64,000 nt of DNA from a virus: positions 32,001 to 96,000 of IMG/VR virus record IMGVR_UViG_3300008255_000003; one strand, 5' to 3'. The notes under the pieces were generated by a model. The model was not told the DNA's origin, did not search any database, and worked only from the letters and a program-made list of their open reading frames with translations. The translations under genes were made by a program, and so were the position numbers. Below, piece after piece: positions 1-54,920 of this stretch (positions are counted from its first letter, which is position 1; each line of letters opens with the position of its first letter).

Positions 1-238
1 CAGGGCCTACGATCTAAAAGTCGGGATGTGTCTTGATGTGGGCGGCTCCGGCTATCCTTACTGGATAGCAGGCATAGAGAAGGGCCGTCAGAACGGCATT
101 GACGTCCTATTCTTAACATTTACTGATCACTCTGGCGTTACATTGCAAGCCCACTGGTTTGCAACGCGTCATGAGTGTTACGAGCTATAATAACGCAGCA
201 GACATGCAACGGTTGCATGTCTGCGCTTGGAGGTTGTG

Positions 239-1096
239 ATGCGTGAGTATATAGAGCGAGTAATTTTCACGACGGCAGTTGAGGCGTATGACTATCCTGG
301 CGTTGTGGTTGAGGAGCTTGAAGCGTTTGAGTGCGGCGGGCGCACTTGGCGCAAGGTCAAGATGGTCAATGAGCCCTATCGCATTGAGAATCAAATAATG
401 CGTTACGCTAGTGGTCTTTGCGGGGCTTGGGATGAAGATCCGCGAGTAGCAGAAGAGAGGCATCGCGTAGTAGAGGAGAAGTGGCGCGCGCTTGTCGCTG
501 AGCAGAAGGCTCAGATTGACGCCATAGATGTCGCTGATGACCTTGAACGCTATTTTAGGCGGAATGAACACTGTCTTGACTATAAGGCCAAGGCACATGC
601 TCGCGAGCGCATTGATGCTCTCGCAAAGCGAGATGCGAAGGCTGAGGCTGAGGCCAAAGCAAAAGAGATCGCGGAAGCAACGCCCAAGCTTCCCAACATC
701 ATATTCATCCCGATCTACCACAACATGCGGTTTTGTCGCTTTGAGATGTCTGTGGTTAAAGGCTTTGACTGGCAGAACAATGTCAAGGTGGATGGGGTGA
801 GTTTGTCTGCGGCTAGCGTCATCGCTGGCGAGTACGTCAGGGCGATCCCCTGGTGGGGCGATATGCCGCCGCAGCGTCTCTTTAGGGATCATGCTCATGA
901 CTTTCAATCATGGGAGCGTGTGACGTTTGAAGGCGAGGCGTACTACCGCGTAGGAAAGATGTTTACATACCCGCGCGAGTACATCGTTTATGACGCTGAC
1001 GGCAAAAAGGTCAGGCGATCAATGCGCCGACTAGATCTCTTTAGTCAGACAGCCCTTGAGTGGACCAAGATCTTTGACATCCCATCGCATCCTTAA
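239..1096 (+). CDS. Hypothetical protein
   Basis: Long ORF with GGAGG RBS at 229-233 directly after a palindrome hairpin. Confidence 0.65.
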   Translation: MREYIERVIFTTAVEAYDYPGVVVEELEAFECGGRTWRKVKMVNEPYRIENQIMRYASGLCGAWDEDPRVAEERHRVVEEKWRALVAEQKAQIDAIDVADDLERYFRRNEHCLDYKAKAHARERIDALAKRDAKAEAEAKAKEIAEATPKLPNIIFIPIYHNMRFCRFEMSVVKGFDWQNNVKVDGVSLSAASVIAGEYVRAIPWWGDMPPQRLFRDHAHDFQSWERVTFEGEAYYRVGKMFTYPREYIVYDADGKKVRRSMRRLDLFSQTALEWTKIFDIPSHP

Positions 1097-1142
1097 ACCC
1101 CTATAGCAAGGCCTGCAACCGTTGCAGGTCTTGGAGGTGTAT

Positions 1143-1541
1143 ATGACCAAGCCCAGGCACCTTAAGAAGCCGTGCGCCCAGTGCCCCTTCCGGGGGAATT
1201 GGCTGACGAAGGGATCAGCCATTGAGATCGTGACAGCCCTTCGCAATGACAAGCCGTTCTCGTGTCATAAGACGGTCAACTATGACCGCGAGCGCGACGG
1301 CATGACTGAGGCCTTCTGCGCAGGAGCCTTGGCTTCAATGCGAAAGTCTGGCGAGCTGTTTAATAACTTCGCCGTCCGCGTTCACGCGATGACCATGCGG
1401 GTCGATGGTTGGCCAGCTAACGTTGATGGTGAAGGCATCCCATCGCTCGATGAATGGATTGACCTCCATGATGACAATGGGCGGAGTCGATTCCCATCTG
1501 GTGAGGGGGTCGAGTTTGATGAGGAGTGTGATGATGAGTGA
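1143..1541 (+). CDS. Small Cys/His-rich, probably Zn-binding phage protein
   Basis: Motifs PCAQCPFR, FSCHKT, FCAGA; GGAGG RBS after the palindrome at 1114. Confidence 0.6.
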   Translation: MTKPRHLKKPCAQCPFRGNWLTKGSAIEIVTALRNDKPFSCHKTVNYDRERDGMTEAFCAGALASMRKSGELFNNFAVRVHAMTMRVDGWPANVDGEGIPSLDEWIDLHDDNGRSRFPSGEGVEFDEECDDE

Positions 1542-2349
1542 GTTTGAGATCTTCGCGCGCAAGTGGCAGCCTAATGAGGTGGTGTTGCCATGCCCGAGCG
1601 CACCAGCACTTAATGACATTCAGGCGGGGTGGCTCTGGCTGCTAGCGCTTGATATTGATCGAGTGCTTTGGGGTCGATGGGCATGGTGGCTTGAGCGTCT
1701 TGAGAAGCGCGACTTTGACACCATCAAGTCTTCTGACATCCCCAAGATCACATTCAACCTCTACCGAGGCCATGAGCCCCACCACAAGGCGCTCAAGATG
1801 CTCAACCTATGTGTTGATACCATTAAGCGCCGCGAAGGGCGCTACAGCGGCAATGGCGCGCTCATGGCGCTAATTGATTGGCTGTCTTGGTCTTTGGGTT
1901 TGCAGGATGAAGCTCCAGGCATAAAGGTTGAGACTCACCAAGAGCTTTATCAGACCTTCTGCCTTGATCTTATCATGGGCGCGCCTTGTGACTATTGGGG
2001 GATCTTACTCTCAGACCTCCAGCACGGCAAAGGCACCACATCGTTTTATCCGACGCCCTCCGAGGTTGTCACGTTATTGACTGACATCATATCTGAGCAG
2101 GATGGGCCTGCCATGAGGAGCGCTTACGATCCATGTCTGGGCACGGGCAGGGCTTTGCTTGAGGCGTCTAATCACTACCTGCTATTGAGCGGCCAAGATA
2201 TAGACAGCTCGGTGCTCAAGTGTGCAAAGCTCAACTTTGCGCTCTATGTCCCTTGGGCGATCGTTCCACCACCGACTGATGAAAAGGTTGTGACCGTTGA
2301 TTCATGTGCCGCAGATCTTGAGCTATTGGAGGGCCTGTTAGATGTCTGA
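1534..2349 (+). CDS. N6-adenine DNA methyltransferase-like protein (SAM-binding portion)
   Basis: FYPTP, YDPCLGTG and GQDID resemble HsdM-type motifs; no NPPY/DPPY seen. Confidence 0.6.
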   Translation: MSEFEIFARKWQPNEVVLPCPSAPALNDIQAGWLWLLALDIDRVLWGRWAWWLERLEKRDFDTIKSSDIPKITFNLYRGHEPHHKALKMLNLCVDTIKRREGRYSGNGALMALIDWLSWSLGLQDEAPGIKVETHQELYQTFCLDLIMGAPCDYWGILLSDLQHGKGTTSFYPTPSEVVTLLTDIISEQDGPAMRSAYDPCLGTGRALLEASNHYLLLSGQDIDSSVLKCAKLNFALYVPWAIVPPPTDEKVVTVDSCAADLELLEGLLDV

Positions 2350-2977
2350 GGTTGCAGTTGCGATGTCCAATGACAAGCTAAGGGCTAAGCTCTTAGATAA
2401 GGTTAACGACCACATCGAGATCTTAAAAGAGCGCGTGGATCTCGTTAAGACTGAGGAGAGCTTGATTGATTTGCTAGTGGCCGAGCTGACCAAGGCAGAG
2501 TATGAGCAGTGGGACTCAAGTGGTGAGCTGCCCTTGTTGATCTGTCTGTATATTGACGATAGCGATGTGGCTTATATTGAAAAGTCTCTAGTTAAAGCCA
2601 TAGACTTTGAGGAGAGGCGCAACGTCAGCTTAACCTTAATGATGGTCATCTCCTTTATAGCGGTGTGGCAAACAGATATGGTTCTGTCACTCTTGCTTGG
2701 TCCGTTCATCTTCGCGGCGTACTTCTTACCATTCCTCTATCAGGGCTATGGTGAGATTGACCGTAAGAGCCTAATCTCACTCCCAAACTTCGACAAGGCT
2801 GCGCAGTATTACTATGGTGCGAGGCAGGGCTTTAAGGATGAGCTTGATAGGGCTGAGGCGGATCGTAATGCCAATAAGATTGGGGCTGTAACCATATCCT
2901 CAGCAGGTGACGGAGGTGGTCAGTTAACGCAGGTGCAATCAGGTCAGCTTGAGGTCTTGAGTGACATAAAGTCTTAA
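2342..2977 (+). CDS. Hypothetical membrane protein
   Basis: Two adjacent hydrophobic segments; start overlaps the upstream stop. Confidence 0.55.
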   Translation: MSEVAVAMSNDKLRAKLLDKVNDHIEILKERVDLVKTEESLIDLLVAELTKAEYEQWDSSGELPLLICLYIDDSDVAYIEKSLVKAIDFEERRNVSLTLMMVISFIAVWQTDMVLSLLLGPFIFAAYFLPFLYQGYGEIDRKSLISLPNFDKAAQYYYGARQGFKDELDRAEADRNANKIGAVTISSAGDGGGQLTQVQSGQLEVLSDIKS

Positions 2978-3000
2978 GCTAACTTATTAGCAAGGATGTA

Positions 3001-3040
3001 AAAAAGAGGCCCCATGCAACCGTTGCATGGGGCTTTTCTT
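3001..3040. terminator. Bidirectional intrinsic terminator-like hairpin with palindrome core
   Basis: GCCCCATGCAAC-C-GTTGCATGGGGC with A-rich left and T-rich right flanks, between convergent ORFs. Confidence 0.75.
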
Positions 3041-3041
3041 A

Positions 3042-3278
3042 TTAGCGATTTTTCTTACGAGCTTTCTTAGCTCTTACACCAGCGCGCCGCTTCGCTTTCT
3101 GGTTGAGGCTCATGCTGGAGCTGTACTTTCTCCGGCGCGACTTCCCGGTGCGTTTGGCGCCTCCACCACCCATGTCAGGCATCGGGAAGCCCCTTGATTC
3201 GGCATCCACAAGAAGGGGCAACATCATAGCTGACACTGCCATCATTCTCTGGTGGTGCTTGTCGTCGTTACGCTTCAT
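3042..3278 (-). CDS. Small basic hypothetical protein
   Basis: K/R-rich C-terminus; last gene of a tightly overlapped minus-strand operon. Confidence 0.45.
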   Translation of the reverse strand: MKRNDDKHHQRMMAVSAMMLPLLVDAESRGFPMPDMGGGGAKRTGKSRRRKYSSSMSLNQKAKRRAGVRAKKARKKNR

Positions 3279-3534
3279 CGTTCTCCTCCAGTGACGCGCT
3301 TACGGCGTATGCGTGCTCTATTGATAAATCGAGATCAAGGTAGGCGATGCTTGAGTAAGCTACGCGCTTACACCATCTCCAAACCTTGGCCTCGTCCTCT
3401 CCACTATCCAACTTGGCCTTAGCCATGACGATAACACTTGAGACGTCCTCTAGGGGAAGCTCAACGGTGCAATATTCATCACGCTCAATCCAAGTCAGAC
3501 GGTGGCGCTCATGCTCATATTTGAAGCTGATCAT
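3268..3534 (-). CDS. Hypothetical protein
   Basis: Overlapping start/stop with neighbours. Confidence 0.55.
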   Translation of the reverse strand: MISFKYEHERHRLTWIERDEYCTVELPLEDVSSVIVMAKAKLDSGEDEAKVWRWCKRVAYSSIAYLDLDLSIEHAYAVSASLEENDEA

Positions 3535-4013
3535 TTGCGATAGTTCTTTACGCCTTCGCTAGCCTCAAGGGCCTCGTGCGCCGCGATGGCTGTGGCGATG
3601 ATCTTTATGAGTTGCGCTTTGGGGTCTGGGCTCTCACCTAGTCGGCTAGAGTATTGAGTAAGGATCTCAGACCATTCACTTGAGGTGTGTGCCATGTCAT
3701 GCCTCAAGCCACCCCAGATCGTCTTCTGCTTAAGGCGTTCAGCCTCAACAGCCTCTAGCATGGCCTTTTGCTTGGAGTCTGCCTTGGGGTCCGAGAGTTC
3801 ACCGTGATGGTCTGCGGCGACCCTGTTGTGGCAATATTCAGTGTCACGACATCGCCATGACATGATGTGCTCCGTGGCATCTTCATTGTCGTACTTGATG
3901 ATGATCTCATGCCTGGCAGCAGTATCATCTTCAATGATGCGACTGCAAAGCTCGCAAAACTCAGAGTATTCTGGAGAGACATGGTGAAGGATCTCGCGTT
4001 TAGTGTAGCTCAT
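3531..4013 (-). CDS. Hypothetical protein with Cys/His motifs
   Basis: CELC...CRDTEYCH; overlaps the sigma factor stop. Confidence 0.6.
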
Positions 4014-5746
4014 TCAAAGTTACCCGTAAGGTTGGATGGGATAAACTGCTCAAGAGCCTTCAAGCGTGATGGGTGCTTGAGTTTCTTGAGGGCCTTTGCT
4101 TCGATCTGCCGGATACGCTCCCGAGTAACGCTGAAGTCGTTTCCGACTTCTTCGAGAGTGTGATCGGTAGTATCACCTATGCCATAGCGAAGGCGCAACA
4201 CCCGTTCTTCACGAGCAGGAAGTGTGGATAAGATCTGCCTTGTAGCTTCGCTCAAGGTCTTACCTTCTATCGCTTCATGCTGGCCCTCATTGAGTACGTC
4301 CTCAATGGTGTCCTCAAGCGTGAAGTTGCCATCTCCTATTGTCTGGTTGAGGCTGACGGGTTCATAGGCAAGCTGGAGCATCTGACGCACCTTATCAACA
4401 TGGATTCCCATCTCGTCAGCGATCTCTTGCGGCTTAGGTGTTTCGCCTGACTTCTGAGCCATCGCCTTTTCAATGCGTTTGAGCTTATGGATGGTGTCGA
4501 TCATGTGGACAGGGATACGGATTGTTCGAGCCTGGTCTGCGATGGCCCTTGAAATGGCCTGCCTGATCCACCATGTGGCGTAGGTTGAAAACTTATAGCC
4601 GCGCTGATGCTCAAACTTATCAACTGCGCGCATAAGTCCGATGTTGCCCTCTTGGATCAGGTCCAGCAGTGGTATACCTCGGTGGTCATGCTTCTTGGCT
4701 ATGGATACGACCAGGCGAAGGTTTGATTGCACCATGACAGACTTGGCCCTCATCGCCAGATCTTCGCCTACTGATATGGCGGAGAATGCGATCTCAAGCA
4801 GGCTCATGGGTAACCCAAGCTCTCGCTCTATCGTATTCATCCTCTTAGTTGCCTGGATAAGATCGCCAAGGACAATGTGATGATTATGCTCGTTAACCTT
4901 GGTGCCATCGCAAGCCATTAAGGCGGCTTTCTTCATGCCCTTATTGAACATGGAGTTGATGAATTTGACCCTCTCCAAACTCACCATGAAGATGCCTTCC
5001 ATAGAACGGAGTTCAGCTTCAGCGAGTTTGGCCTCATTGTATTTTGACTTGAGGCCATTCGATATAAGGTCAACGTACTTCTTGGTGAAGTAAAACGAGC
5101 TAATGCCGTTGGTGATAACTTCGACCTCATCTGAGTTTAAGACTGGCGCGCCTATCCTTGAGGTGCTGCTTGTCCTTACTCGTTCAACGTCTTTAAGAAA
5201 CTCATTAAAGCGTTCGATGTTATCAAGCTCGAAAGCCTCCACCGCCTCGGGATCATTGAAGTCGATCTTCTCACCTGGCGCTGCTTGTAGCAGGTCGGAC
5301 GACTTAATCTTTCGCTTACTTAGAAGCGCTCCAATGAGTTGAAGCTCTTTAAGCCCATACTGTGTGCATAGGGTGGTGTTAAGGATGATGCTTTCACCGC
5401 TTGAGATTTGCTCGGAAGCTTCGATCTCTTCTGCCCTTGTGAGGAGCGGCACCCTGCCGATCATCCTTAGATAAGTCCTCACACTGTCACTGCCGGACAA
5501 GCTTCCATCATCAAGCTGACTGCGGCGTTCTGATGACATGATCTTTCGAGGTGTAGCTGCGGCCTGATCACCGATCACTACACCCATGCTGCTTAGGATG
5601 GTTTTAAACAGTATAATGGCTTGAGCGTGTGGATAGTCTGTAATGATGTTGTCCACATCGTGATGACTGATGAAGCCATCACGATAGCCCTTGTAGAATG
5701 TATGCTTAAGCCTTCCAAGCTTGAACCTATCCGTTGCGCCGCCCAT
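4010..5746 (-). CDS. rpoD: RNA polymerase primary-type sigma70 factor (578 aa)
   Basis: Region 1.2 [17 protein letters not shown]; region 2 [11 protein letters not shown]...[16 protein letters not shown]...[31 protein letters not shown]; region 4 TLEEVG...[20 protein letters not shown]; large non-conserved region. Confidence 0.95.
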
Positions 5747-6219: not shown

Positions 6220-7713
6220 ATGTCTAAGCTGAGCATTATTGAGAGCTACTTCCTGAGCGAAGCCAGGTGGAAAAAGGAAGGCGTCACCCTTGAGGATGAC
6301 TATGGAAAGATTGCAGCCCTTGCTGGTGAGGGTCATCACTATCTGAGCTTCACCGCCATTCCCAAGCTTGGGATTAACCCCCAGTCGAAATACAAGACCC
6401 CTTTAGGGATCTACACCTACGCTATGGCTGACGAGTGGTTCTGGAGGGCTTGGAATGAACACCAGTTCCCCTTCGTGGCAGACCAACCATTCGTTCAAGT
6501 CATGCGCGCGCGCAGTGAGTCTGGGCTTGTAGTCATCGAACGCGGCGGGGCACTATCTAAGGGCAAGTCTCTAATTCAGCGTGCCGTTAGTAAGTATGAG
6601 AAGATGATCGACACCGACGATGCTCACCGATATGCGAGCAAAGATGTTGAGCAGTATGACAGGCCTTGGATCAACTCTGTAAAGGGTGATGCCGCCCTAT
6701 TTAGGTGGTACTGGTCTTTCACGCGTTATCTTGCGATTGGTGATAAGGGTGGCAGTAATCGCCTTGCATGGATCTCACTATGGGGCAAGATCATGATGAA
6801 TGATGGTGTCATGATCATTGAGGACCGTGGTACGGGTACAATTCATCAGAATGAGCCTCACCAAGCTGTCGTCTTGTCGATGGCAGCGGTCGATCACGTC
6901 CTCCAAGCCCAGAACCCACTCAATGATGCTAAGGTTAAAGCACCTGTAAGGGGTGTTAAGCGCGAAGGTCGCAACTATAACAAGTTTAAGTCTGAAATCG
7001 CTGTTCACCTTGAGGCGTTCAGGCGTGGTGCTAGCGTCATCGACCAGATGGGTGTGGGCGAACGTCAGATTGATAGTATGCTCACTGAGGCTTACAGGAC
7101 GGCTAAGTTAACACCAGCAGGGCTCAAGAAAGCCTTTTATAAGGATGACGTCAGTGGCTTTGTGCCATCTGGGGTTTTTGAGTTTGAGCGTGAGGCAATG
7201 GGTAGTCTTGCAGATGGGCTTGAGCTTGGTGGTGATCTGGCTAAAACTTGGCTACTTGGTGAAGGTGCGATAGGTACTGAAAAGCGCCTGTCTCTTATAT
7301 TTTCACCAAAGGTCATCGTCGGTTATGACACTTTCGAGTTTAGATATTCCGACATATTCAAGCGCGGCGCCCCCATCCCACCAGATGTTAATTCATACTT
7401 TAGTGTTGAGGTGGGCAAGCTGCGCTTTAACTCTTCTAAGATCCACGTCGGGAACATCTACGGCATAGGTCTGACAAGTAACGTATCCAAGCTTAGCCTT
7501 GTGAATTGCGAGATTAGCATCACCAAAGAAGACCTTATGGAGCTTGGTGATTTTGATGCCGCTGAGGTTAAAGGCGCGATCTCCAATCCTAAGATCTTGG
7601 AAGCCGTCATGAAGGTTATTCTCGCAGGTCAATTCGTGCGGGCAGCAAGGCCAGACGGCCCTGCGTCTGGCTTGAACCTAAGTTTGGTTAACTGCAAGTT
7701 TGAGGTGGTGTGA
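6220..7713 (+). CDS. Paralog family member A (497 aa), conserved N-terminal domain plus variable C-terminus
   Basis: Shares RWKKEG, SFTxxPKLGxNPxSxxxTPLxxYTY, RxYW and DxGxGTIHxxEPxQA with ORFs at 7713, 12392 and 14094. Confidence 0.9.
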   Translation: MSKLSIIESYFLSEARWKKEGVTLEDDYGKIAALAGEGHHYLSFTAIPKLGINPQSKYKTPLGIYTYAMADEWFWRAWNEHQFPFVADQPFVQVMRARSESGLVVIERGGALSKGKSLIQRAVSKYEKMIDTDDAHRYASKDVEQYDRPWINSVKGDAALFRWYWSFTRYLAIGDKGGSNRLAWISLWGKIMMNDGVMIIEDRGTGTIHQNEPHQAVVLSMAAVDHVLQAQNPLNDAKVKAPVRGVKREGRNYNKFKSEIAVHLEAFRRGASVIDQMGVGERQIDSMLTEAYRTAKLTPAGLKKAFYKDDVSGFVPSGVFEFEREAMGSLADGLELGGDLAKTWLLGEGAIGTEKRLSLIFSPKVIVGYDTFEFRYSDIFKRGAPIPPDVNSYFSVEVGKLRFNSSKIHVGNIYGIGLTSNVSKLSLVNCEISITKEDLMELGDFDAAEVKGAISNPKILEAVMKVILAGQFVRAARPDGPASGLNLSLVNCKFEVV

Positions 7714-9158
7714 TGTCTAAGTTAGATATGATCGAGAGCTACCTCCTCAGCGAGGCTCCACGCTGGAAGAAAGAAGGTGTAAGCCTTGAGAGTGACTACG
7801 CTAAGATCGCAGCTATGGCGGGCGACGGTCATCACTACTTAAGCTTCACCGCGATGCCCAAGCTTGGCATCAACCCGCAGTCCAAGCATGAGACGCCGCT
7901 CGGGATCTACACCTATGCAATGGCAGACCCTTGGTTTCAGAAGGTATGGGAGAATCAGCAGTTCCCCTTTGTTGCCGATCAGCCTTATGTTTAAGTCATG
8001 AAGGCTAAGAAAGAGTCAGACATCATCATCCTTGGTGAAAGCTCAATCATCCAAGGGGCGTCGCGCATTAGGACGCTTAACGATCAACACAAGCGCTACA
8101 TCGAGCAAGACTTTGTATTCGGTGAGGCCTTTAAAGAGTTCAAGTATAGGAGCTTACCTTGGGTTGATAGCGCCAGTGGTGGAGTGCGTGAGTTCAGGTG
8201 GTATTGGGCGTTCACCATGCAGCTATCTAAGATGATGAAGGCTGAGCGCCTGTCGTCTATCGCTTACTGGGGCAAGCGCATGATGGGCGATCGCATCATG
8301 ATCGTTGAAGATCGCGGTAGCGGCACCATCCATCATAATGAGCCCAACCAGGCCGTCATCTTGTCGATGGCGGCTGTTGATCATGTGATGCAAACGCAGA
8401 ACCCCCTCCGTGGTGCCAAGAGGCCATTCCCTGGCCACGGTACCCCCAAGTCAGGTCGAGCATTCCAGAGGGCCAAGTTACTCATCAGCGAGAAGATGCG
8501 AGTAATCAGGGACGCCGCGAAGGTGCTTAATGACCTCAAGAGCACCTTCGCACTCTCAGCTCAACTCTTTAAAGCTATGGATCTGGCTAAGAAGTCTGAC
8601 ACTGAGATCATCTCAAGCATCTCCACTGCGGCTGGGATTGATACTGAGAGTAAGACCTTTGGGGATATTGATGACCTTTATTTTACGCTGGGCAAACTTG
8701 TGGCGTTCTGGAATAGCAACACTGAGCTATCGGACATCTTCTTGCGCGGTAAGGATGCTCAGTACGTTGGTGGGTTTATTGATAATGTTGTCGATCTTGT
8801 CTTTATCGAGTTTGATGACATCACGCTGGAGCGAGTGAATATCTTTAACAGCCTTAATGACTTGGAAGGCCTGTCTGGTGTGATGCTTGGCTTTATGAAC
8901 ATGACCATTAGGGATTGCGTTATAGACTTGAATGCACTTCAAGACCTCGCTCTCACCGAGCCCACTAAGAGGCTTGTGTTTGATCGGTGTCGTTTCAAGC
9001 TCAAGGCTATCCCAAGTATTGCGGCTGGTACAACCCAACCCAACGAGAGTCAGTTGCGCGAGATCTCAAAGATCTTTGTTGGCGAAGTCAACGGCACCAA
9101 ATATCGAGATGGAATCAGGCCAGCATTCTTCAAGGATTGCACCTTCGACGTTACCTGA
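7713..9158 (+). pseudogene. Paralog family member B, interrupted by in-frame TAA at 7992-7994
   Basis: GTT TAA GTC ATG aligns with GTT CAA GTC ATG in member A; the frame continues with family motifs to 9158. Confidence 0.85.
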
Positions 9159-9177
9159 ACATGCAACCGTTGCACGT

Positions 9178-9846
9178 CTAGGCCTGTATCTCTTGCTCTG
9201 ACGCGATGAGCGCATCAAAGTCTTCAAGCTCAAGCGGCTTCTTGTATTCTATCTGCCCAAAGGCATCCTCAACGTCTTGGTGCGCCCTGGCTATCTCAAG
9301 CGTGATCCTTTCAAACTGATAAGACCTAACACCCATGACTCGCTCAAGGATGATACTGGTGAGCGATGCCAGACCTACTATGGATAGCGCCACTGCTAAT
9401 GGTCCAATGGAGTAACCAACAAAAGCCGTTAGGATCATCGCCATAGACATTAAGCACATCACACCGAGTAGCACTGAGGTTAAGCGCTTGAGGCGGTCAG
9501 ACTTATGTTGAGCCTCTTCTAGCCTTCTGGAGTTCTCTCTAAAGATGTCTAGCGATGCTTGTTTGGCGCGCGCCATTTCACGCTCAAGCGCGCGCCTCAC
9601 CTCTCTTTCAAGCTCAGCGCCTTTAGAGGTGTCTTTCATAATCCTACGCTCAACCAGATCTGGAGGTGGTGTAAATCTCTTGATCTCCATCATCTCAGAC
9701 TCTCGCCATCCAACACTTTTGCGCGCGACGGGTTTGATGCTTGCTGTGATCTTGAGATCGTTACCATCGAACTTTTTAAGCAGGATGTCATCGAGCGGCT
9801 CTCCGCGCTGATCGGCAAGAGCCTTGACTAGGTGCTTGAGTCTCAT
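9178..9846 (-). CDS. Coiled-coil membrane protein
   Basis: Helical charged region followed by two hydrophobic segments. Confidence 0.6.
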   Translation of the reverse strand: MRLKHLVKALADQRGEPLDDILLKKFDGNDLKITASIKPVARKSVGWRESEMMEIKRFTPPPDLVERRIMKDTSKGAELEREVRRALEREMARAKQASLDIFRENSRRLEEAQHKSDRLKRLTSVLLGVMCLMSMAMILTAFVGYSIGPLAVALSIVGLASLTSIILERVMGVRSYQFERITLEIARAHQDVEDAFGQIEYKKPLELEDFDALIASEQEIQA

Positions 9847-10781
9847 TTCAGCCTCACCAAGATGTCTGCCTGCGTTGTGATGACTTCTGATATGAATTTG
9901 GCGCTAAAATATTCTTGATAGCTTTGGCGATTTTGTTCAATGATTGCAGGTCCAACCAGCACATGATTCATGGCCTTCCTGATAGTGTCTTCGACGTCAC
10001 CAAGCGCAAGCTCTGTGATCATGCTAATCACAGATGGGCTTAGGAGTTCATGACTGTTGGCTTCGAGGTATTTTCTGGTTGCCTTGGATATGTTGTCTAG
10101 CTGCGCAAGGACCGTCATGTCAGACATGTTGAGTGGTATCTTCGAGGTGCGCACCACAAGGTCTGTACTGCCGCCAGACCTGTCATATAAATGCGCGCTT
10201 GCTTCGATCGACTCTTGGTCTGACAGCGCTTTGATTAGTGCAAGGCTGACGGTGGCGCCATGAAAGTCTTTGCAGTCTTTAACCCTGGCGAGATAGCCAG
10301 GCCTTAACACCCAAGTCAGATCGCCATCGATCATAAGCCTGGACAGTCGGATGTTCTGATTGAGCGCGACCTCTATGGTGATAAAGCCAAACCCAAAGAT
10401 CTTATCCAACTCAAAGAGGAGCGTCGCGGTGTCACCAGCATAGACCGTTGGCGGTATGTCGAAGCCTTCAGTGCTCATGATAAGGGTCATCTCATCCCTT
10501 ATCCTTATATGGTGCCTGGCTTTTTCGCTGGATAGTGATGACCCGTGATCATCGCGTTCATCTTTGAGCTTTACGACGTCACTCAATGGATCGGAGTGAA
10601 GCACATCAAAGCGATAGAGCGGCAGTTGAGCGCCCTTGAGGTGTCTTGAGCTGAGCGCCTCATGGTAGTCATCGAGGCTGTCTTGTACTTTGCAGATTGC
10701 CTTGTCTAGGTGCTTGTCGAATGCGGCTATACTCATGGTGTCATCATCTTGGTTGTTGGTTATAAGAAAGCGGCGGCTCAT
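9843..10781 (-). CDS. Hypothetical protein
   Basis: 312 aa ORF whose stop overlaps the next start. Confidence 0.65.
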   Translation of the reverse strand: MSRRFLITNNQDDDTMSIAAFDKHLDKAICKVQDSLDDYHEALSSRHLKGAQLPLYRFDVLHSDPLSDVVKLKDERDDHGSSLSSEKARHHIRIRDEMTLIMSTEGFDIPPTVYAGDTATLLFELDKIFGFGFITIEVALNQNIRLSRLMIDGDLTWVLRPGYLARVKDCKDFHGATVSLALIKALSDQESIEASAHLYDRSGGSTDLVVRTSKIPLNMSDMTVLAQLDNISKATRKYLEANSHELLSPSVISMITELALGDVEDTIRKAMNHVLVGPAIIEQNRQSYQEYFSAKFISEVITTQADILVRLK

Positions 10782-10817
10782 TAGGCCGCCGACTCAACGC
10801 ACTATCACAGGCGCTTG

Positions 10818-11483
10818 TTACTTCATCCAGATGTCAGAAGCCTTAAGCGTCTCGACATACTCTCTTCGATAAGCCTTGGTGTTGAGCCCTTCAAAGCTTT
10901 GAAAGATCTCTTCACCGTTACTGTCAGTGAGTTTGAAGTAGGTCAGGCCAGCCGCTACTGCTAGCGCGATGTTGACCTTAGCCTCATCCCCAGCGATGAC
11001 CTTGAGAATCTCAATGTGGTCACTTCGCTTAGCTTCCTTGATCGTGAGGTTGAGCTTGTAGACCAGCCCCCCATTCTCAATCTTGCCGATGATCTTGCCA
11101 CCGTGTGTGAGGTTGATGTCTGTGAGGCGCGACTTAAGCTCTGCGGCGTGGTGTTCAGCGATTTCATCAAGGGTGAAGTTGGAGTAGCGTTTCTTGAGCC
11201 CCACGGACATCTTTACGGCCTGTTTAGAGATGCTTGGCCTCACATCATCCATTTCATCCATATAGTCCACCGAGTTGAGCAGTCGCCCCAGTGACGGTGC
11301 CGTCTCTTTGCACTCGTAGGAGGTGATGTTCATGTCCTCAATCTTCTTGAGGTTTTCGATGATGATCATCACCTTCTCTTCATTCTCATTAAGGCTGGGC
11401 TCATAGTTATAGATGGCGATGCTGGATAGCATCACAACAGCCACAGAGATAACTATCGCGATAAACACCTTGTTCTCTTTCAT
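10818..11483 (-). CDS. Hypothetical protein with N-terminal membrane anchor
   Basis: GAGG RBS before ATG at 11483; N-terminal VFIAIVISVAVVMLSSIAIY. Confidence 0.65.
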   Translation of the reverse strand: MKENKVFIAIVISVAVVMLSSIAIYNYEPSLNENEEKVMIIIENLKKIEDMNITSYECKETAPSLGRLLNSVDYMDEMDDVRPSISKQAVKMSVGLKKRYSNFTLDEIAEHHAAELKSRLTDINLTHGGKIIGKIENGGLVYKLNLTIKEAKRSDHIEILKVIAGDEAKVNIALAVAAGLTYFKLTDSNGEEIFQSFEGLNTKAYRREYVETLKASDIWMK

Positions 11484-11507
11484 CCTCAACCTCTTATGAG
11501 TTTCCAA

Positions 11508-12391
11508 GTGAAAGGGCTACCACACAGTAGCCCTGATTCATTGACGTTAAACTACTCGGCCCAAACCTGCAACGGTTGCATCCCTACTTCACAGCCTCAC
11601 GACATCCTAGACACTTTCCGAGCACAGCTTACGGCGGCACTCACTCACTAACCTCTAAATCCCTTATATCATCCCTTATTAAATCCAACCAAATCAACTC
11701 CAGAATCAACTTTTACCTCACACCATAACTTTCCCTACTCCATAGAATGCCACCCATCCGACATTCACACTTCAAACATCCCCAAGACCACATCAAATGA
11801 TCATCACTTTCAACCCCTATAAAAACACCCACTCTTCATAGACCCCCTCAACCAACCCCCCTTCATGGTGCATAACCACCCCATACATCCTATGGTGCAA
11901 TACATCGTATAGAACATCATCCCTTACCCATACTGACACCGTAGTGAGTTACGTCTGCACCATAACGAGTGACGATTACACCATAAGGCCTCTATGGTGC
12001 ATGATGACGGGAAAAGACATTTCGCTCCGCACCCCCACCCCCCTTTGAAAAAACTCAGGGGGGAGCTGCTCTGTTTTTTTTCCCAAGCACCATTGGGGGA
12101 TTTTTCAAAAGGGGCAGGGTGTGTCCCTATGGTGGAGGCATAGAGTCCTATGGTGGAGGCATAGAGTCCTATGGTGGAGGCATAGAGTCCTATGGTGGAG
12201 GCATAGAGTCCTATGGTGGCGGGAGGGGGTCGCGCGAGGGGAGTGACCTGTGGTGGTGGGGGTATGAGTGTACGGGGAGTGTGCGGGGGTCAATGTCAGA
12301 CGTGCAACCGTTGCATGTTGGAATGATGGGGGTCGGTGTTAGAATGGGGTTCGTGGCGAGATGTAAACAACGCACCATAGAGAGGTATGGG
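11508..12391. other. Non-coding region with skew switch and repeated motifs; candidate replication origin
   Basis: Top strand C/A-rich to about 12050 and G-rich after about 12110; 13 CACCAT/ATGGTG copies; imperfect inverted repeat 12040-12114; a palindrome copy near each end (11568, 12303); lies between divergent genes. Confidence 0.55.
12125..12219 (+). repeat. 21-bp tandem repeat TCCTATGGTGGAGGCATAGAG, about 4.5 copies
   Basis: Units start at 12125, 12146, 12167, 12188, plus a partial unit at 12209; each full unit holds CTATG-N7-CATAG. Confidence 0.95.
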
Positions 12392-13843
12392 ATGGGCAGT
12401 TTGGAGTTGGTCGAGCAGTATGTGATGGGAGAGGCGGCAAGGTGGAAAAAGGAGGGGGTTGGGCTTGTCTCACCGTATGAGGAGGTGAAGCAGTATATGA
12501 AGCCTGGTTACTTCCTGAGCTTCACTGCGCTGCCTAAGCTAGGCATGAATCCTAGATCGTCATACAAGACGCCTTTAGCGCTCTACACCTACTATATGGG
12601 GAGTGAGTATTTTAAGACCGCTTGGGAGAATCAGAAGTTCCCCTACCAGACGCAGCAGCCTTATGTCCAAATCATGAAGATTCGATCACCACCAAATATC
12701 GTGACGTTTGGAAACGGCAGGGTTGAGAATGATCATCTAATCGTGAAGGCTTTGGGGCGGTACAGGGAGAAGGCGCGTACAAGTCAGGTTCATGCCAATG
12801 CAATCGCATTGGCAAACCCGGACAGTGATCCCTGAATTGACTTATCTAGTGATGACGTCAGGCTGGTGCGTTATTACTGGGCGATAACAAAAGCGCTCGC
12901 GGCAGGCTCAATAGCACGCTGGGGTAAGCTGATGATGGATGATGGCATCATGGGCCTTAACGATATGGGGTCCGGCACCATCCATACGAACGAGCCTCAC
13001 CAAGCGGCGTTCTTTTCAATGCAAGCCGTGGATCATGTCACTCAACTTAACAATCCACTTGCAGGGGCGCTGCCTGACTTCAATGCCCAAGGTCTAGGGC
13101 CAGGGAGTTCTCAGAAATACTTTAAAGGTGTTCATAACAAGCTGAGGTTGTTAGTTAAGCTTGTCATTAAGCTTATGAATGAAATTGGCGTAAACCATAA
13201 GCTTAGTCAGAGTTTTATGGAGCTTGCTGGTGCTTCTGAGCTTAGTCTAGGTGACTTCGTAACTAAGGTTGCAGATCTCAATAACCCAAGCGGGTATAAT
13301 GAAGACTTTGAAGTAACGCTCGGTCTTTTTGACATCAAGGTGATTAAAGCTGCTGTTAAGGCGATCAAGCCGCACATCAATCAGATCGAGCCATTCCTTA
13401 AAGGTGCCAGGTTCACCACGAGCTGGCCTGGGAACAAGCTTAGCTTCCACGTTAATGACGTTAAGCTCTTGAGGTCTGACTACTTCAATATGCCAACGCG
13501 GCGAGAGTCAATTAATGACAATGTAGAGCTGTTTGTAAGGCAGATGAATCTGGTGGATAGTGTGATCACGCTAAACAGAATGCCCAACGCTCAAGACCTT
13601 GGGTTCATGTTTCCACCGTCATTTAGCTTTAGCAAGTGCATCATTAGGGCGACGATGGCGGAGTGGGATAAGATGCTCGGAACGGGCGGGGGTCAGATGA
13701 TTAAGGATGGCGTACCCCTTGCCAATCTGACACCTTTAACTAAGGCCATGTCTGAGCGACTAGACATGTCATTCTTAAACTCTAAGCGAATTGCGAAGCC
13801 AAATGACTTTCAGTTCTCCGACTGTAAGTTTGAGGTGATTTAA
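12392..13843 (+). pseudogene. Paralog family member C, interrupted by in-frame TGA at 12833-12835
   Basis: P*IDLSSDDVRLVRYYW aligns with PWIN/PWVD/YWIN...RWYW in the other members; AGAGGT RBS before ATG at 12392. Confidence 0.85.
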
Positions 13844-13885
13844 TCATCACGCACGCAACGGTTGCATGTCATAAGGAATCCGACT

Positions 13886-14101
13886 ATGACTAAAAGTAAG
13901 AGAGAGATCTCGTCCAAAGATCCAAGGATAGAGATCGCGTGTGAGATTGAGAATATGGTGATGGTTGGTTTTTCCAGCGCCGAGTTGGCACCTAGTGATG
14001 AGCAGGGTTGGAATGTCGTAATGCTTATAGGTAGCGACGGCAAAAGATATAAAGTTACAGTCACAAGAGTTAACGAGAAGAGGGGTATGTCTGATGTCTA
14101 A
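13886..14101 (+). CDS. Small hypothetical protein
   Basis: AAGGA RBS; stop overlaps the start of member D. Confidence 0.5.
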   Translation: MTKSKREISSKDPRIEIACEIENMVMVGFSSAELAPSDEQGWNVVMLIGSDGKRYKVTVTRVNEKRGMSDV

Positions 14102-15671
14102 GATTAAGGTGATAGAGCAGTACATGATCGGTGAGGCTGCTCGGTGGAAGAAAGAGGGTGCTGAGATCTTATCCCCCAAGGATGAGGTATCTTCATATAT
14201 AGGGGATGGTAAGGGCTATCACCTATTGAGCTTCACTGGTCTGCCCAAGCTCGGGATGAATCCCAAGTCGCACTACAACACCCCGCTCGGGATCTACACA
14301 TATTCTATGGTGGACCCTTGGTTTGAGAAGCAGTGGGAAGATCAGGACTTCCCCTTCGCGTCCGACCAGCCTTACATTCAGATCATGCGTCTAAGGTCTG
14401 AGCGCGGCCTTGTGGTGTTTAGCAACTCTGGCATCAGCATGGGGGGCTCGTTAATCAGCTCGCTCAATAAGAAGTATCAGAAGCTAATCACCCAGGGTGA
14501 TAATCGAGCGGTCGGTGCCCATAAGATGATGCTTCGTGGGAGTGAGTATTGGATTAATGAAGTAGCTGGAGGTGCTCGGGAAGTGCGCTGGTACTGGGCA
14601 TTCACTCAACATTACGCGAGCCTCATTGAGGGTGAGTCTGGCAAGCCTGTCAGGGATTGGAAGCACCCTGGTCATATTCATAACAACGCGGCGTCTATCG
14701 CGGTGTGGTCTAAGGTCATGGTTGATGATGGTATCGTCGCCTTCGATGATAGGGGGACAGGAACCATTCACCCTGACGAGCCGCATCAGGCAGTCGTGCT
14801 TACCATGAAGGCTGTGCAGCATGTCGCGCAGATCTTGAATCCTGTTGGCGGTGCAAGTCAGAAGCTCTTTAAGCGTGGCGTAAAGCGTCAGGGTAGGATG
14901 ATCAACATCTTCACCAAGTGGGCTGTTGAGACTCGCAAGGCGTTTGAGGAGGCCTACGATAGGGTTGAGAAACTGTCGAAGTATGATGAGATCTCAAACC
15001 TTGGGGCCATGTTGTTGATCAGGAATTTCCTTGAGAATAGTGATGAGGACAATATAAAGGGCGTCACCAACCAAGGTATGACAGACTTTGAGAGCAATAA
15101 AATGCAGATAATCAACGCCACCCTGGCCTTGCACGAGAGGGTTGAGCTGGCCTTGGACATGGCTGGTGATAATAGGCTGCTGCGCGCCATTCTCTATGGC
15201 GAGAGTGCGCAGAGGATAAGGGCAAGCCTTAATATGGTGATAGCCTCTACAATGCTTGATCTCACCATAGATGAGTTTGTGGTGCAGGGCTCTACCATGC
15301 TTGAATCGCCTAGCAATGTGAGCGCTGGGCTGGCTGACCAGTTTGGCATAAGCATCACGGCTAGCATCTGGAATCTTAGGTTTAAGAGGATGGAAGTTAA
15401 CGTAGAGTCTTTTGGTGCTTTAAAGGGTCTTTTGACGGGCATGTCAAAAGACATGAATCACTTTATCTTCGAGGGCTGCGACATCAAAGTGCCGAAGCTG
15501 GACTTCACGCTTGCGACTAATATTGAGCTTGGTGATGATGAGCTTGAGAACGAAGAGTTCTTCGCGGTGCTTTTTAAAGACTACTTCATTAAGGACATGC
15601 CTAGGATCTTGGGCATCAGCGGCAAACCACTGTCTGTTGAGGTTAAGGACTGTACTTTCGAGTTGGTCTGA
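14094..15671 (+). CDS. Paralog family member D (525 aa, intact)
   Basis: Same N-terminal motifs as members A-C. Confidence 0.9.
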   Translation: MSKIKVIEQYMIGEAARWKKEGAEILSPKDEVSSYIGDGKGYHLLSFTGLPKLGMNPKSHYNTPLGIYTYSMVDPWFEKQWEDQDFPFASDQPYIQIMRLRSERGLVVFSNSGISMGGSLISSLNKKYQKLITQGDNRAVGAHKMMLRGSEYWINEVAGGAREVRWYWAFTQHYASLIEGESGKPVRDWKHPGHIHNNAASIAVWSKVMVDDGIVAFDDRGTGTIHPDEPHQAVVLTMKAVQHVAQILNPVGGASQKLFKRGVKRQGRMINIFTKWAVETRKAFEEAYDRVEKLSKYDEISNLGAMLLIRNFLENSDEDNIKGVTNQGMTDFESNKMQIINATLALHERVELALDMAGDNRLLRAILYGESAQRIRASLNMVIASTMLDLTIDEFVVQGSTMLESPSNVSAGLADQFGISITASIWNLRFKRMEVNVESFGALKGLLTGMSKDMNHFIFEGCDIKVPKLDFTLATNIELGDDELENEEFFAVLFKDYFIKDMPRILGISGKPLSVEVKDCTFELV

Positions 15672-51693: not shown

Positions 51694-52004
51694 CTGGTGT
51701 ACCTGAGCGCCTAGCCGCTTGGCGCGATCTCGGCTTTGATGCGGTCCGCCCACCTGTTGCAGGGGAGTGGGTGGACCTACCATCAGGGGTTAGGGTTGTG
51801 GTGCGCGAGGTCTACCGATATGATGACCTCAGACCATACGCTGATGGGGATGTATTCTCTGCGTGTATGCGCTCTCATCTCGGTGTTAATTGGAAGAAAT
51901 TACTGGCTGTCGTGATCGTTAACTCGGACAGTCTTGGAGATTACTATGCGTGGGAATTGGCTTACCCGTACCTCATCAGTGCGCCGCCTGATTGGTGGTC
52001 GTGA
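51570..52004 (+). CDS. Hypothetical protein (start uncertain, probably near 51690)
   Basis: Fills the gap between genes; protein-like 3' half. Confidence 0.4.
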   Translation: MGSGARGQGDVGNAVRPVSPPVKKGAARACGAVRLAAGLGLTGVPERLAAWRDLGFDAVRPPVAGEWVDLPSGVRVVVREVYRYDDLRPYADGDVFSACMRSHLGVNWKKLLAVVIVNSDSLGDYYAWELAYPYLISAPPDWWS

Positions 52005-52014
52005 ACGATCGGTG

Positions 52015-52914
52015 ATGGTGTCTGTAGGAGCTGAAGCTGCTGTGTTGCTGCTTTGGATTTTGGAAGTTTCAGAACACACCCTTCATGGTGATAAGATCCT
52101 GTCTGAGCTTAGGCCGGATCTTGATGTTTATCTTGGCCTCGCCGGAAACTCACAGAGCCTTGTTGGTGTGCTTTGTGCTGAGGGCTGGCTGGTTGAGACT
52201 GAGTGGCCTAACTTTGTTGAGGTCGGGCAGCTCATGGATGACGGCATGGTGAGGATTCACTTTGACTGCGTGTTCACAACATCAGTCATGGAAGCCCAGG
52301 CCAAGGCCAAGCGTGATAAGATCCTCGCTGATCGCACGCAACGGTTGCATGTTAAAAGCTCAGATAGTGAGGCGAAGACTGATCAGGCCAGTGTTGAAGA
52401 GCCTAGGTCTGCTGCTGTTTCTGACCTTATTGATGCGATCACTGCCAAGTCTGACAAGGTGGCCAGTGAGAGCATTGAACGGCGCCGCAAGCGCGCTGCT
52501 GAGAAGCCACCAAAGCCTAAAGCTGAGCCTAGAAAGACATCGGCAACTGTCTTTGCAGAATGGAAGGTGCTTTATTCTGCCCAATATGGAGAGCAGCCGG
52601 AGTCAATGTTTAATGGTGGTAAGCTTTCTGCCGAGGGTGGCCGTATGAGTACGGTTGTCAAGAAAGCTGGCAGTGTTGATGCGGCTCTTGCGTTCATCCG
52701 AGAGGTCATGGGAAGGCATGGCGATTACGCCAAGCTCTATCGACATGCTGGCGTGTTTGATGGTGCGTTTCTCTTGAGGATAGTTGGCGAAGTGACATTT
52801 GCTCAGTCCCGCGACCTTGATCCCATCAAACACATACAGTCAATCAAGTCGTCTCCCAACGCATCAGGCGCGAAGGATAAGGCTAAGGGTGCTGAGTTTA
52901 AGGATGACTTCTAG
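52015..52914 (+). CDS. Putative replication initiator-like protein
   Basis: Two-domain look with a charged linker, directly upstream of the DnaC-like and DnaB-like genes; inferred from position only. Confidence 0.4.
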   Translation: MVSVGAEAAVLLLWILEVSEHTLHGDKILSELRPDLDVYLGLAGNSQSLVGVLCAEGWLVETEWPNFVEVGQLMDDGMVRIHFDCVFTTSVMEAQAKAKRDKILADRTQRLHVKSSDSEAKTDQASVEEPRSAAVSDLIDAITAKSDKVASESIERRRKRAAEKPPKPKAEPRKTSATVFAEWKVLYSAQYGEQPESMFNGGKLSAEGGRMSTVVKKAGSVDAALAFIREVMGRHGDYAKLYRHAGVFDGAFLLRIVGEVTFAQSRDLDPIKHIQSIKSSPNASGAKDKAKGAEFKDDF

Positions 52915-52917
52915 GAG

Positions 52918-53595
52918 ATGAATATGATTTATCGACCCTGGATGCCTAACCCGCGCGAGCTGGGAGAGGCAGATATGCAGGATATGCTGTTACCTAGGCG
53001 TTACTGGGTGACTGACCCGAGCTTGTTTCCCGATGGTGCCGTTGAGACTACTAGCGGCGTCAATAACCTCAACCGTGGCAGGAGCGCTAAGGCGGTGCTT
53101 GAGTCCTACATCTCAAAGCTTGAGATGGCGCGCCTCAACGGCCTTAACCTTTGGCTTGCTGGAAGGAATGGCGTTGGCAAGACAGCGGCAGCCGCCCACC
53201 TGCTAAAGCTCTTTAGGTCGCACGGTCAGACGTGTCACTATGTCCACGCTGAGACTTATCGATCTATCAACTTTAGAGATCGTGAGATACCAGACCAAGG
53301 CTTGCTATCTGCAATCTGCATGACGTCTGATGTCCTGATGATTGATGAGGTAGGCAAAGAGGCTCCTGACAATAGCGGCTTCTTTGCATCGCGGCTTGAG
53401 TACCTCCTGCGAGAGCGCTATGCAAATGGTGCTGTAACTATCGTAACCGCCAACTTTGGGGTCCATAGGATCTGTGAGGTCTATCCAGACAAGATGAGCC
53501 TCGCGCACCTCCTGAGTCAGTCTTATGGTCAGGTAGCTTGCAATGGCAGGGATCTTCGGGAATCCATCGATCGAGTGGGGTTTGATACAATATGA
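52918..53595 (+). CDS. DnaC/IstB-like helicase-loader ATPase
   Basis: GRNGVGKT, LMIDEVGKE, LLRERY, TIVTAN. Confidence 0.85.
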   Translation: MNMIYRPWMPNPRELGEADMQDMLLPRRYWVTDPSLFPDGAVETTSGVNNLNRGRSAKAVLESYISKLEMARLNGLNLWLAGRNGVGKTAAAAHLLKLFRSHGQTCHYVHAETYRSINFRDREIPDQGLLSAICMTSDVLMIDEVGKEAPDNSGFFASRLEYLLRERYANGAVTIVTANFGVHRICEVYPDKMSLAHLLSQSYGQVACNGRDLRESIDRVGFDTI

Positions 53596-54920
53596 GTAGT
53601 GATAAGGTCAGGGTTCCTACACTTGGTGAGATCGTTCTTAGGATGGCATTGTTTGAACGCAAGGCCGTCTATCCTATCTGGGATTTAGGTCTTAGGATTG
53701 AGCACTTCGATCCTACGGTGCAGGCCGCATTCAAGTTCATTGAAAAGTATCGATCTAACAATGAAGGCAAGCTGCCTGGCGATGCCATTCTTGCTAGTGA
53801 GATGGGTTGGGGTGACTATCCAAGCGTGCGCGACTTTAGAGAAGAGGCCACCTTTACCTATTTCGCAGAGATGATGCGCAGGAACGCGCTCTATGAGATC
53901 TTTAGGCGAAGGATGTCTGAGGTTGAATCAATGCTGCGCCAAGGGCCTGACGAGGTAGACAAGGCTCTTGAGACGTGGCTTGATCTACCTGATGACATCG
54001 TTGGCCTTCGGGGTGGCGTGGGCTCTCTTGTGGTGCCTGTCAACTCTCTATATAAGGACATGATGGGCAGTTACGATCGATACAAGGCTGGCGAGGTCGG
54101 CATTGATCTTTACTGGAAAACCCTTACTGATGAGGCGCTCTTGCAGCCTGGCCAGAATGCTTGGATTGTTGGTCGCCCAGGAACAGGCAAGACGTGGCTC
54201 ATGCTTATGCTCGCTGAACACATGGTGGATCAGGGCCTCAAGGTCTTATTCGTCTCACCAGAGGTTAGGGGGGTTTCTTTCGCTGAGCGCCATGTAGCTC
54301 GCGCGCTCAAGCTCAATTACCTTAAGCTTATTCAGGGTAAGCTTGACCCGCTCCAAGAGCAGTTATTGCGCAACCATGTTGAGAAGGTGTCGCTTAGTCC
54401 TAATGAAGGTGTCCGTGTTGCATCGTCAGACTTTCAACCTTCGCGTGAGAAAGTTGAGGCCATGATTGAGCGTGAAGATCCTGATGTGATCTTTCTCGAC
54501 TCAGTTTACCTCTACGGCAAAGGTCGCTCTCGCGGTGACGTTCTGGCGTCTGTGGCGCCTTGGATTGTGCAGTTGTGCTCTTGGGGCAGGCAGCGCAATG
54601 TGTTTGCCACTGCGCAGCTCAACCGCGACGCTGGCGATGAGTCTTCCGTTACTGGAGATAACATCTACGGCACTGATGCAATCTTGCAGGATGCAGACGT
54701 CATCCTTGGCATGATACAAAGTGAGCAGATGCGCAAAGATCACCAGATGCTCATAAAGTTCCTGAAGCGAAGGCGCTCCACCTATAAGATTAATGAGTTC
54801 ATGATCGAATGGGATATGGCGCGCATGTCTTTCGAGGAGATCATCAGGGCACCAAGGGTTACTCAGCCTAACTTTGCCAACGCAGCCACACCAGGCTTTG
54901 ACACTTCTGTCCCATTTTAA
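53592..54920 (+). CDS. dnaB: Replicative DnaB-like helicase
   Basis: GRPGTGKT, VIFLDSVY, TAQLNR, YGTDAILQDADVIL. Confidence 0.88.
   Translation: MSSDKVRVPTLGEIVLRMALFERKAVYPIWDLGLRIEHFDPTVQAAFKFIEKYRSNNEGKLPGDAILASEMGWGDYPSVRDFREEATFTYFAEMMRRNALYEIFRRRMSEVESMLRQGPDEVDKALETWLDLPDDIVGLRGGVGSLVVPVNSLYKDMMGSYDRYKAGEVGIDLYWKTLTDEALLQPGQNAWIVGRPGTGKTWLMLMLAEHMVDQGLKVLFVSPEVRGVSFAERHVARALKLNYLKLIQGKLDPLQEQLLRNHVEKVSLSPNEGVRVASSDFQPSREKVEAMIEREDPDVIFLDSVYLYGKGRSRGDVLASVAPWIVQLCSWGRQRNVFATAQLNRDAGDESSVTGDNIYGTDAILQDADVILGMIQSEQMRKDHQMLIKFLKRRRSTYKINEFMIEWDMARMSFEEIIRAPRVTQPNFANAATPGFDTSVPF

Follow-up and report, generated by a model that had tools for sequence, protein, structure and literature searches.

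We describe here a gene-free gap in the genome of an uncultured tailed phage, a virus record of the IMG/VR database (IMGVR_UViG_3300008255_000003) that is 129,896 bp long and rated complete. The window that we analysed is a stretch of 64,000 nucleotides covering bases 32,001-96,000 of this record, and the coordinates below are those of the window unless genome coordinates are named. The gap occupies positions 11484-12391 and separates two divergent genes: the left gene lies on the minus strand with its most likely start codon (ATG) at 11483, and the right gene starts with an ATG at 12392. An earlier note, made from the letters of the window alone, had proposed that positions 11508-12391 hold a replication origin or, alternatively, a genome end or packaging region.

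Protein-coding signals are missing from the gap by several measures. The stretch 11508-12118 is the longest one in the genome without an open reading frame (ORF) of at least 70 amino acids (aa), and the small ORFs in the gap score from -0.05 to -0.65 in codon log-odds per codon, against 0.28 +/- 0.145 for real genes. The period-3 signal is absent as well, with values of 5.6 and 2.4 where the null expectation is 4.1 +/- 2.4 and the flanking genes reach 68 and 24.5. We found no tRNA in the gap and no protein-level similarity between the gap and the rest of the genome. The claim of a stretch without genes between two divergent genes is thus borne out.

Repeated motifs and base composition

Among the local k-mer clusters of the genome, the gap ranks first at k = 7, 8 and 9, and the motif CACCAT/ATGGTG occurs in it 13 times. 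Eleven of these copies extend to the heptamer TATGGTG, where 0.40 would be expected from the density of the heptamer in the genome. If the tandem array described below is taken as one event, seven independent heptamers remain against the 0.40 expected, and the Poisson tail is ~2e-7. The copies of the heptamer elsewhere in the genome lie within coding sequence and have unrelated, random flanks, which rules out that TATGGTG is a genome-wide promoter element.

Five of the motif copies belong to a perfect tandem array on the plus strand (12126-12219), which consists of 4.5 identical 21-bp units, CCTATGGTGGAGGCATAGAGT. Each unit carries the dyad CTATG-N7-CATAG, so that CTATG and CATAG alternate along the array with N4 between the dyads. 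The period of 21 bp corresponds to two helical turns, which places the dyad sites on one face of the helix. A CRISPR-like array is ruled out, as the 21-bp units are contiguous and have no spacers. The other eight copies are spread over 650 bp in both orientations and have the consensus TATGGTGCa; the dispersed TATGGTG(C) copies within 11721-12001 are those at 11721 (minus), 11865 (plus), 11892 (plus), 11958 (minus), 11979 (minus) and 11994 (plus). The dyad CACCATA-N7-TATGGTG at 11979-11999 is the best example of a full site, and in nine of the 13 copies CATA stands 5-7 nt upstream of TATG, indicating that the full site is a dyad. A second pair with 21-bp spacing, of opposite orientation, is found at 11946-11986, and the hairpin across 11940-12010 has a folding z score of -2.19. 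The last motif copy, GCACCATAGAG at 12373-12390, overlaps the ribosome-binding site of the right gene and is a perfect 11-nt inverted partner of positions 11990-12000. No dyad cluster comparable to that of the gap exists elsewhere in the genome.

A central inverted repeat has its arms at 12039-12052 and 12101-12114, which are complementary at 13 of 14 positions and enclose a core of 48 bp. It arose in none of 100 block shuffles; as a single strand it folds no better than shuffled sequences (z scores of -0.76 and -0.60). The core holds runs of G6, T8 and G5 together with one motif copy (12088), and the sign of the GC skew changes there. Weak terminator-like hairpins are seen on the plus strand at 12056-12105, followed by the T8 and T5 runs.

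The gap has ~50% G+C overall. Two blocks in it are extremely asymmetric. On the plus strand, the block at 11580-11940 is depleted of G (G 7.2%, C 38%, skew -0.68), so that its non-template strand is G-rich when it is read leftward, and the block at 12110-12350 is depleted of C and rich in G (G 45.6%, C 13.3%, skew +0.55). In windows of 360 bp the genome has a mean skew of +0.079 with a standard deviation of 0.097, and both the genome minimum (-0.68) and the genome maximum (+0.56) fall into the gap, 500 bp apart. For the other intergenic gaps, the skew averages +0.05 and its standard deviation is 0.10. An ancient large inverted duplication is ruled out as the source of the two halves, as local alignment recovers the palindrome only.

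The G-poor and C-poor blocks, the imperfect inverted repeat at the switch between them, and the 13 motif copies with 11 heptamers and the inverted pair at 11979-11999 had all been described in the earlier note, and our analysis confirms each of them. The earlier note had also suggested that G-quadruplexes could form on opposite strands, which we did not confirm: under the rule of four runs of at least three G's with loops of 1-7 nt, neither strand of the region has a canonical G-quadruplex motif, and the whole genome has one, at window position 24304.

A candidate iteron-type origin

Our analysis suggests that the gap is most likely a docking hub for a sequence-specific, dimeric DNA-binding protein of the phage. 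Such a hub could serve as an initiator-dependent replication origin of the iteron type, of the kind of lambda ori and SPP1 oriR. We give this origin a probability of about 0.4 and rank it above every other single reading, since the array resembles iterons and the site is unique. No repeat cluster was found within the candidate initiator gene, and therefore no second site of iteron type is present in the genome. Further points in favour are the position of the longest ORF-free stretch between divergent operons, the stretch of low duplex stability described below, and a possible set of organizer, loader and helicase that the phage encodes together with a primase and a UvsX-like recombinase. The origin proposed in the earlier note is thus partly supported, and loses the argument that was built on the skew.

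The best candidate for the dimer would be a 322-aa protein (51946-52914, plus strand), possibly an origin binder, which is encoded directly upstream of a DnaC-like loader (52918-53595, plus strand) and a DnaB-like helicase (53592-54920, plus strand). We propose that dimers of this or another early phage protein would occupy the phased sites and form oligomers, by which the DNA would be bent or wrapped. The stress would then open whichever weak duplex is nearest, be it the A/T-tract core within the inverted repeat or the stretch at 11644-11750, and the loader would put the helicase onto the opened duplex. The stretch at 11644-11750 is a candidate unwinding element; it is the least stable duplex of the region, lies at the 99.9th percentile of the stability windows of the genome (as the eighth least stable 100-bp window), and has imperfect 12-nt repeats, TAAATCCCTTAT (11656-11686). 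A feature-level search links the 322-aa protein to Lin1244_N / Phage_rep_org_N with scores of 0.94-0.95 and few shared features, a weak lead to the replisome-organizer families. This protein had been put forward earlier as the initiator under the name ORF 52015. A Pfam family could not be assigned to it. Its conserved N-terminus puts the start at 51946 and not at 51934 or 52015.

A number of observations weigh against an origin at this site, and we consider the skew first. The flip from C to G had been taken as a sign of a bidirectional origin, with the proviso, set beforehand, that a purely local skew would refute it. The cumulative GC skew of the whole record climbs steadily from 65 to 5169 with a 1-kb dip at the gap, which makes the flip purely local, and the skew at four-fold sites does not change its sign along the genome. 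The excess of G on the plus strand is genome-wide and comes from codon position 1 (+0.284), position 3 having a skew of 0.00 and the four-fold sites one of -0.14; therefore the cumulative GC skew cannot locate the origin in this phage. The flip at the gap is local and not a replication signature; by the proviso of the earlier note it gives no evidence for a bidirectional origin. The mirror-image flanks are local sequence features with the G-rich strand pointing outward on both sides. Neutral transcription-linked mutation bias is ruled out as the source of the skew, given the value at the four-fold sites and the values near zero in the other gaps. The four-fold sites also have a strong bias of T over A (-0.35).

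The surroundings of the array and the candidate initiator give further points of this kind. Genes are oriented leftward for 2.3 kb only, and the gap lies 40 kb from the genes of the initiator candidate, the loader and the helicase. No clear AT-rich tract adjoins the array: the neighbouring core has ~50% A+T (with runs of A6, T8 and T5) and the weak stretch is 380-480 bp off. No DnaA box, i.e. TTATCCACA with at most one mismatch, is present in 11200-12700. The 322-aa protein has no Pfam match, and its structure model is poor, with a predicted local distance difference test score (pLDDT) of 45.8. A search of 1.8 billion representative proteins brought up one homologue, P0127 on a 25.6-kb Logan contig, which is 44% identical and, like the phage protein, ends in DDF.

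No relative carrying the gap region was found in the collections that we searched, and therefore neither the origin nor a reading of the motifs as operators gains comparative support. A search of a phage DNA database in distant mode gave no match. Viral contigs scanned with the left gene, paralog D of the right gene's family, the DnaB-like helicase and P0127 as protein seeds gave no match, nor did a pattern search of viral and metagenome contigs for the DNA of the array unit, nor the alignment of the candidate initiator against contigs of prokaryote genomes. Three TATGGTG phased at 21 bp occur at 39 loci in viral contigs, none of which has a gene in common with the phage. An alignment of the N-terminal domain of the paralogs gave 84 loci, which belong to very distant phages, where the family lies beside head genes, and show no syntenic gap.

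The array itself also argues against the origin in two respects. The perfect identity of its units suggests recent slippage rather than iterons that were maintained for long. Read in frame with the downstream gene, the array gives YGGGIES 4.5 times, and positions 12376-12390 give IERYG. This echoes the N-terminal leader L-I-E-S-Y, with which 13 genes of the phage begin, including the right flanking gene, and the chance that a random 21-mer gives an IESY-like reading in that frame is 1e-4 to 3e-4. The array may hence have grown from leader-coding DNA. The serine codons of the leaders vary (AGC or TCN), so that the leader is conserved as a peptide and an RNA-level target common to the ESY leaders is ruled out. 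Taken further, these echoes lead to the idea that the gap is non-functional debris, made of decayed starts of paralog genes and of recent slippage of a 21-bp leader-coding piece, and the identical array units and the in-frame stop of the neighbouring paralog would fit. We consider this the least likely of the explanations weighed here, as the gap has neither protein-level similarity nor a period-3 signal, and decay cannot yield the two most extreme skews of the genome because the neutral four-fold sites are at -0.14 only. Nor would it account for the central inverted repeat or for the eight further motif copies, which lie beyond the array in both orientations.

The G-rich outward flanks may promote R-loops, which are known to be favoured by GC skew (PMC3787257). 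We used a QmRLFS-like script of our own, whose rule asks for clusters of G and, after them, a stretch of 100 nt or more in which G makes up 40% or more. Three loci in the genome satisfy it, and two of them are in the gap and face outward, at 12221-12289 on the plus strand and at 11861-11843 on the minus strand. The third lies at 58395-58595 in a 45-bp tandem repeat (2.2 copies, 100%) within the gene 57641-58639, where the coding strand is C-rich. If weak promoters in the centre of the gap fired outward, stable RNA-DNA hybrids could help to open or prime the origin. This is the least supported step of the proposed mechanism, and it counts against the origin that the central outward promoters are weak matches (GTGACG-18-TATGGT at 11969-11998 and TTCAAA-18-TATGGT at 12104-12133). 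An extended form of the idea is a two-part origin, with an iteron core between outward R-loop-prone zones, where divergent transcription would open and prime the DNA in both directions, a phage counterpart of the herpesvirus oriLyt. It would explain why the two most extreme strand asymmetries of the genome are mirrored around one inverted repeat; nevertheless we regard it as unlikely.

Flanking genes, promoters and genome context

The left flanking gene (10818-11483, minus strand, codon log-odds +0.38) encodes 221 aa with an N-terminal membrane helix and is the first gene of a leftward operon of three genes (9178-11483). It has no Pfam or PHROG match and no relatives in viral or metagenome contigs. 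Just upstream of its ribosome-binding site, a perfect 7-bp hairpin GGGCTAC...GTAGCCC lies on the minus strand at 11514-11533; its folding z score is -2.97, and one of 200 shuffles folds as well.

The right flanking gene (12392-13843, plus strand) carries the 'ESY' leader and is a member of a paralog family of five copies, which is located at 6220-15671. It is broken by an in-frame TGA at 12833-12835, after which the frame stays open for 325 codons (12866-13843), and it could be a pseudogene or contain a read-through or recoding site. The N-terminal domain of the paralogs has the motif FLSFT..PKLGINP.S.YNTPLGIYTY and is widespread in IMG/VR phages, including contigs of 200-560 kb. In several IMG/VR contigs it adjoins portal, protease and head genes, and these neighbours fit a virion-associated protein. 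An upstream extension of the right gene by 91 codons (from a GTG at 12119) is probably not translated, as its codon score is +0.06 and it would contain a boundary palindrome and the gene's own promoter.

This promoter, TTGGAA-16-(TG)TAGAAT at 12318-12345 on the plus strand, is sigma-70-like and lies 47 nt upstream of the right gene, and therefore the 21-bp array is upstream of the promoter and outside its mRNA. It was the sole consensus match in the scan with a promoter tool and ranked eighth in the genome in a scan with our own scoring. The boundary palindrome is TGCAACSGTTGCA, a 13-nt sequence with 40 exact copies in the 130 kb of the genome; most copies are intergenic, often within longer site-specific hairpins or true terminators. 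Two of them, at 11568-11580 and 12303-12315, bracket the gap with 720 bp between them.

The promoter and the palindromes bear on the main rival explanation, in which the gap is the transcription control region of two divergent operons and the motif copies are operators for a repressor or activator of the phage. We hold this to be possible, if doubtful. The regulator would bind cooperatively to the 21-bp-phased array upstream of the right promoter and, through the dispersed sites, reach both promoters, and the G-rich outward composition would spare long untranslated leaders the C-rich sites at which Rho loads. In favour of it, the array is followed by the strong promoter at a distance of 100-200 bp, and the last copy of the motif coincides in part with the ribosome-binding site of the right gene. 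The dyad sites, with their 14-21 bp, are similar to helix-turn-helix operators, and palindromes that mark gene boundaries bracket the gap. In addition, the phage has its own RpoD-type sigma factor 6 kb away and thus reprograms transcription. However, 13 sites over 650 bp far exceed the known operator sets, and we identified no gene for a regulator in the neighbourhood. Divergent junctions elsewhere in the genome are short (the longest having 493 and 243 bp), have no repeat cluster and show a skew near zero. If the gene-proximal promoters are real, the central 600 bp are not part of a leader, and the argument about Rho fails.

One or more non-coding RNAs made from the gap are another explanation, and quite an unlikely one. 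One example would be a G-rich transcript with five identical hairpins (stem CUAUG/CAUAG, loop GUGGAGG) that acts as a decoy for an RNA-binding protein, and another an unstructured RNA, rich in C and devoid of G, that would be made from the left half and terminate at the T-runs in the centre. The five hairpin units do bear GGA/GGAGG in their loops, the terminator-like hairpins before the T8 and T5 runs are on the plus strand, and the gene-free 720 bp between the boundary palindromes resemble an empty gene slot. On the other side, the gap has no Rfam match at E <= 1, its folding energies are not better than those of shuffles (z scores of -0.83, +0.06 and -0.96), and no convincing promoter precedes either candidate RNA. 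The occurrence of the motif in both orientations suits the recognition of double-stranded DNA better.

The phage is a myovirus according to its PHROG matches. In genome coordinates, these matches place the baseplate at 1,200-3,440, the large terminase at 100,287-102,371, the portal, the protease and the major head protein (107,810-109,354), and the tail sheath at 116,236-118,875. The replication module lies at 47-64 kb of the window and contains an SNF2-type helicase, the 322-aa protein, the DnaC-like loader, the DnaB-like helicase, a dCTP deaminase, a primase, a further helicase and a UvsX-like recombinase. No tyrosine integrase was found in the genome. There is no ParB_N match in the genome either, so that a partner for a partition (centromere-like) repeat site was not found. 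The sigma factor mentioned above is a full-length primary one of RpoD type (578 aa, 4010-5746, minus strand). Its search gave matches to bacterial RpoD only, the best being of Bradymonas, Myxococcota and Desulfobacterota type with 42-45% identity, which hints at the host group.

Both ends of the record share an exact repeat of 123 bp, which begins 10 nt before a start codon and runs 113 nt into the gene. This is what an overlap from a circular assembly would look like, and therefore the true DNA ends are not given by the record. The gap could in principle be such an end, or a packaging site, as the earlier note had offered as its alternative: it would be a concatemer junction with terminase-binding repeats, collapsed in the circular assembly. 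Phages with direct terminal repeats, such as T7, have arrays of short repeats in the non-coding DNA of their terminal regions. We find this alternative very unlikely. The large terminase gene is 56 kb away, and pac and cos sites are as a rule found next to the genes for terminase; the gap has no long repeat or duplication, the 123-bp repeat being at the contig ends, and divergent operons with their own promoters depart from the site.

Comparison with known origins

The iterons of lambda are imperfect inverted repeats of 19 bp, of which lambda has four and the Stx phages have six (PMC7466680). In lambda-type origins, four to six such repeats thus follow each other in direct orientation with a spacing of about two helical turns, and each is bound by a dimeric initiator (PMC7466680). 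The gap is similar with its 4.5 units of 21 bp, each of which has the dyad CTATG-N7-CATAG. The lambda origin, whose iterons are bound by the O protein, is however located within the gene of its initiator, and an AT-rich tract directly borders the iterons. In contrast, the gap is intergenic, is 40 kb away from the candidate initiator, has no clear AT-rich tract beside its array, and has extreme mirror-image G/C flanks.

In SPP1, an origin binder, a loader and a DnaB helicase form a trio, and one origin, oriL, lies inside gene 38 and the other, oriR, in one of the longest intergenic regions (PMC6316719). The layout of the gp38-gp39-gp40 trio matches that of the possible trio of our phage, and the second origin of SPP1 is far from the replication genes and has direct repeats and an unwinding element (PMC6316719). 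SPP1 shows in this way that a trio of this sort is able to serve a second, distant origin in a long intergenic region. Differences are seen in base composition, as the SPP1 origins form islands rich in A+T and the gap as a whole is not rich in A+T, and in the origin binder, as gp38 is a member of a recognised family and the 322-aa protein matches none.

The origin of phage c2 of Lactococcus (Ceduovirus), which has a genome of 22 kb, is independent of phage proteins and lacks an array of iterons. It lies in a non-coding gap between divergent gene blocks, acts via a non-coding transcript and supports plasmid replication (PMC7150918). The setting between divergently transcribed blocks is shared with our gap; sequence similarity between the two is absent.

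In the oriLyt of human cytomegalovirus (HCMV), the bases are distributed asymmetrically, direct as well as inverted repeats occur, and a G-rich transcript gives rise to an R-loop (PMC7185721). The gap is similar to this herpesvirus origin in its asymmetric bases and its direct and inverted repeats. The differences are that oriLyt belongs to a eukaryotic virus and has an RNA-DNA hybrid at the origin, while a transcript or hybrid is hypothetical for the gap, which has only ~50% G+C. Other R-loop-assisted origins are those of ColE1 and oriF and oriG of T4.

In the PLE satellite of phage ICP1, the RepA_N iterons mark an origin that was proven by coverage profiling and deletion (PMC7145576). It has in common with the gap a non-coding region with several types of repeats, among them semi-palindromic direct repeats. 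The PLE initiator, on the other hand, is encoded beside the origin, and the PLE iterons converge on a poly-A tract.

To our knowledge, the origins of large uncultured lytic phages have almost never been mapped. The gap offers a well-defined candidate origin with a clear binding motif that is directly testable. It also gives a caution, as a sharp local flip from C to G is not replication skew. If the mirror-image G-rich flanks prove functional, a component of transcription and R-loops would be added to the model of phage iteron origins.

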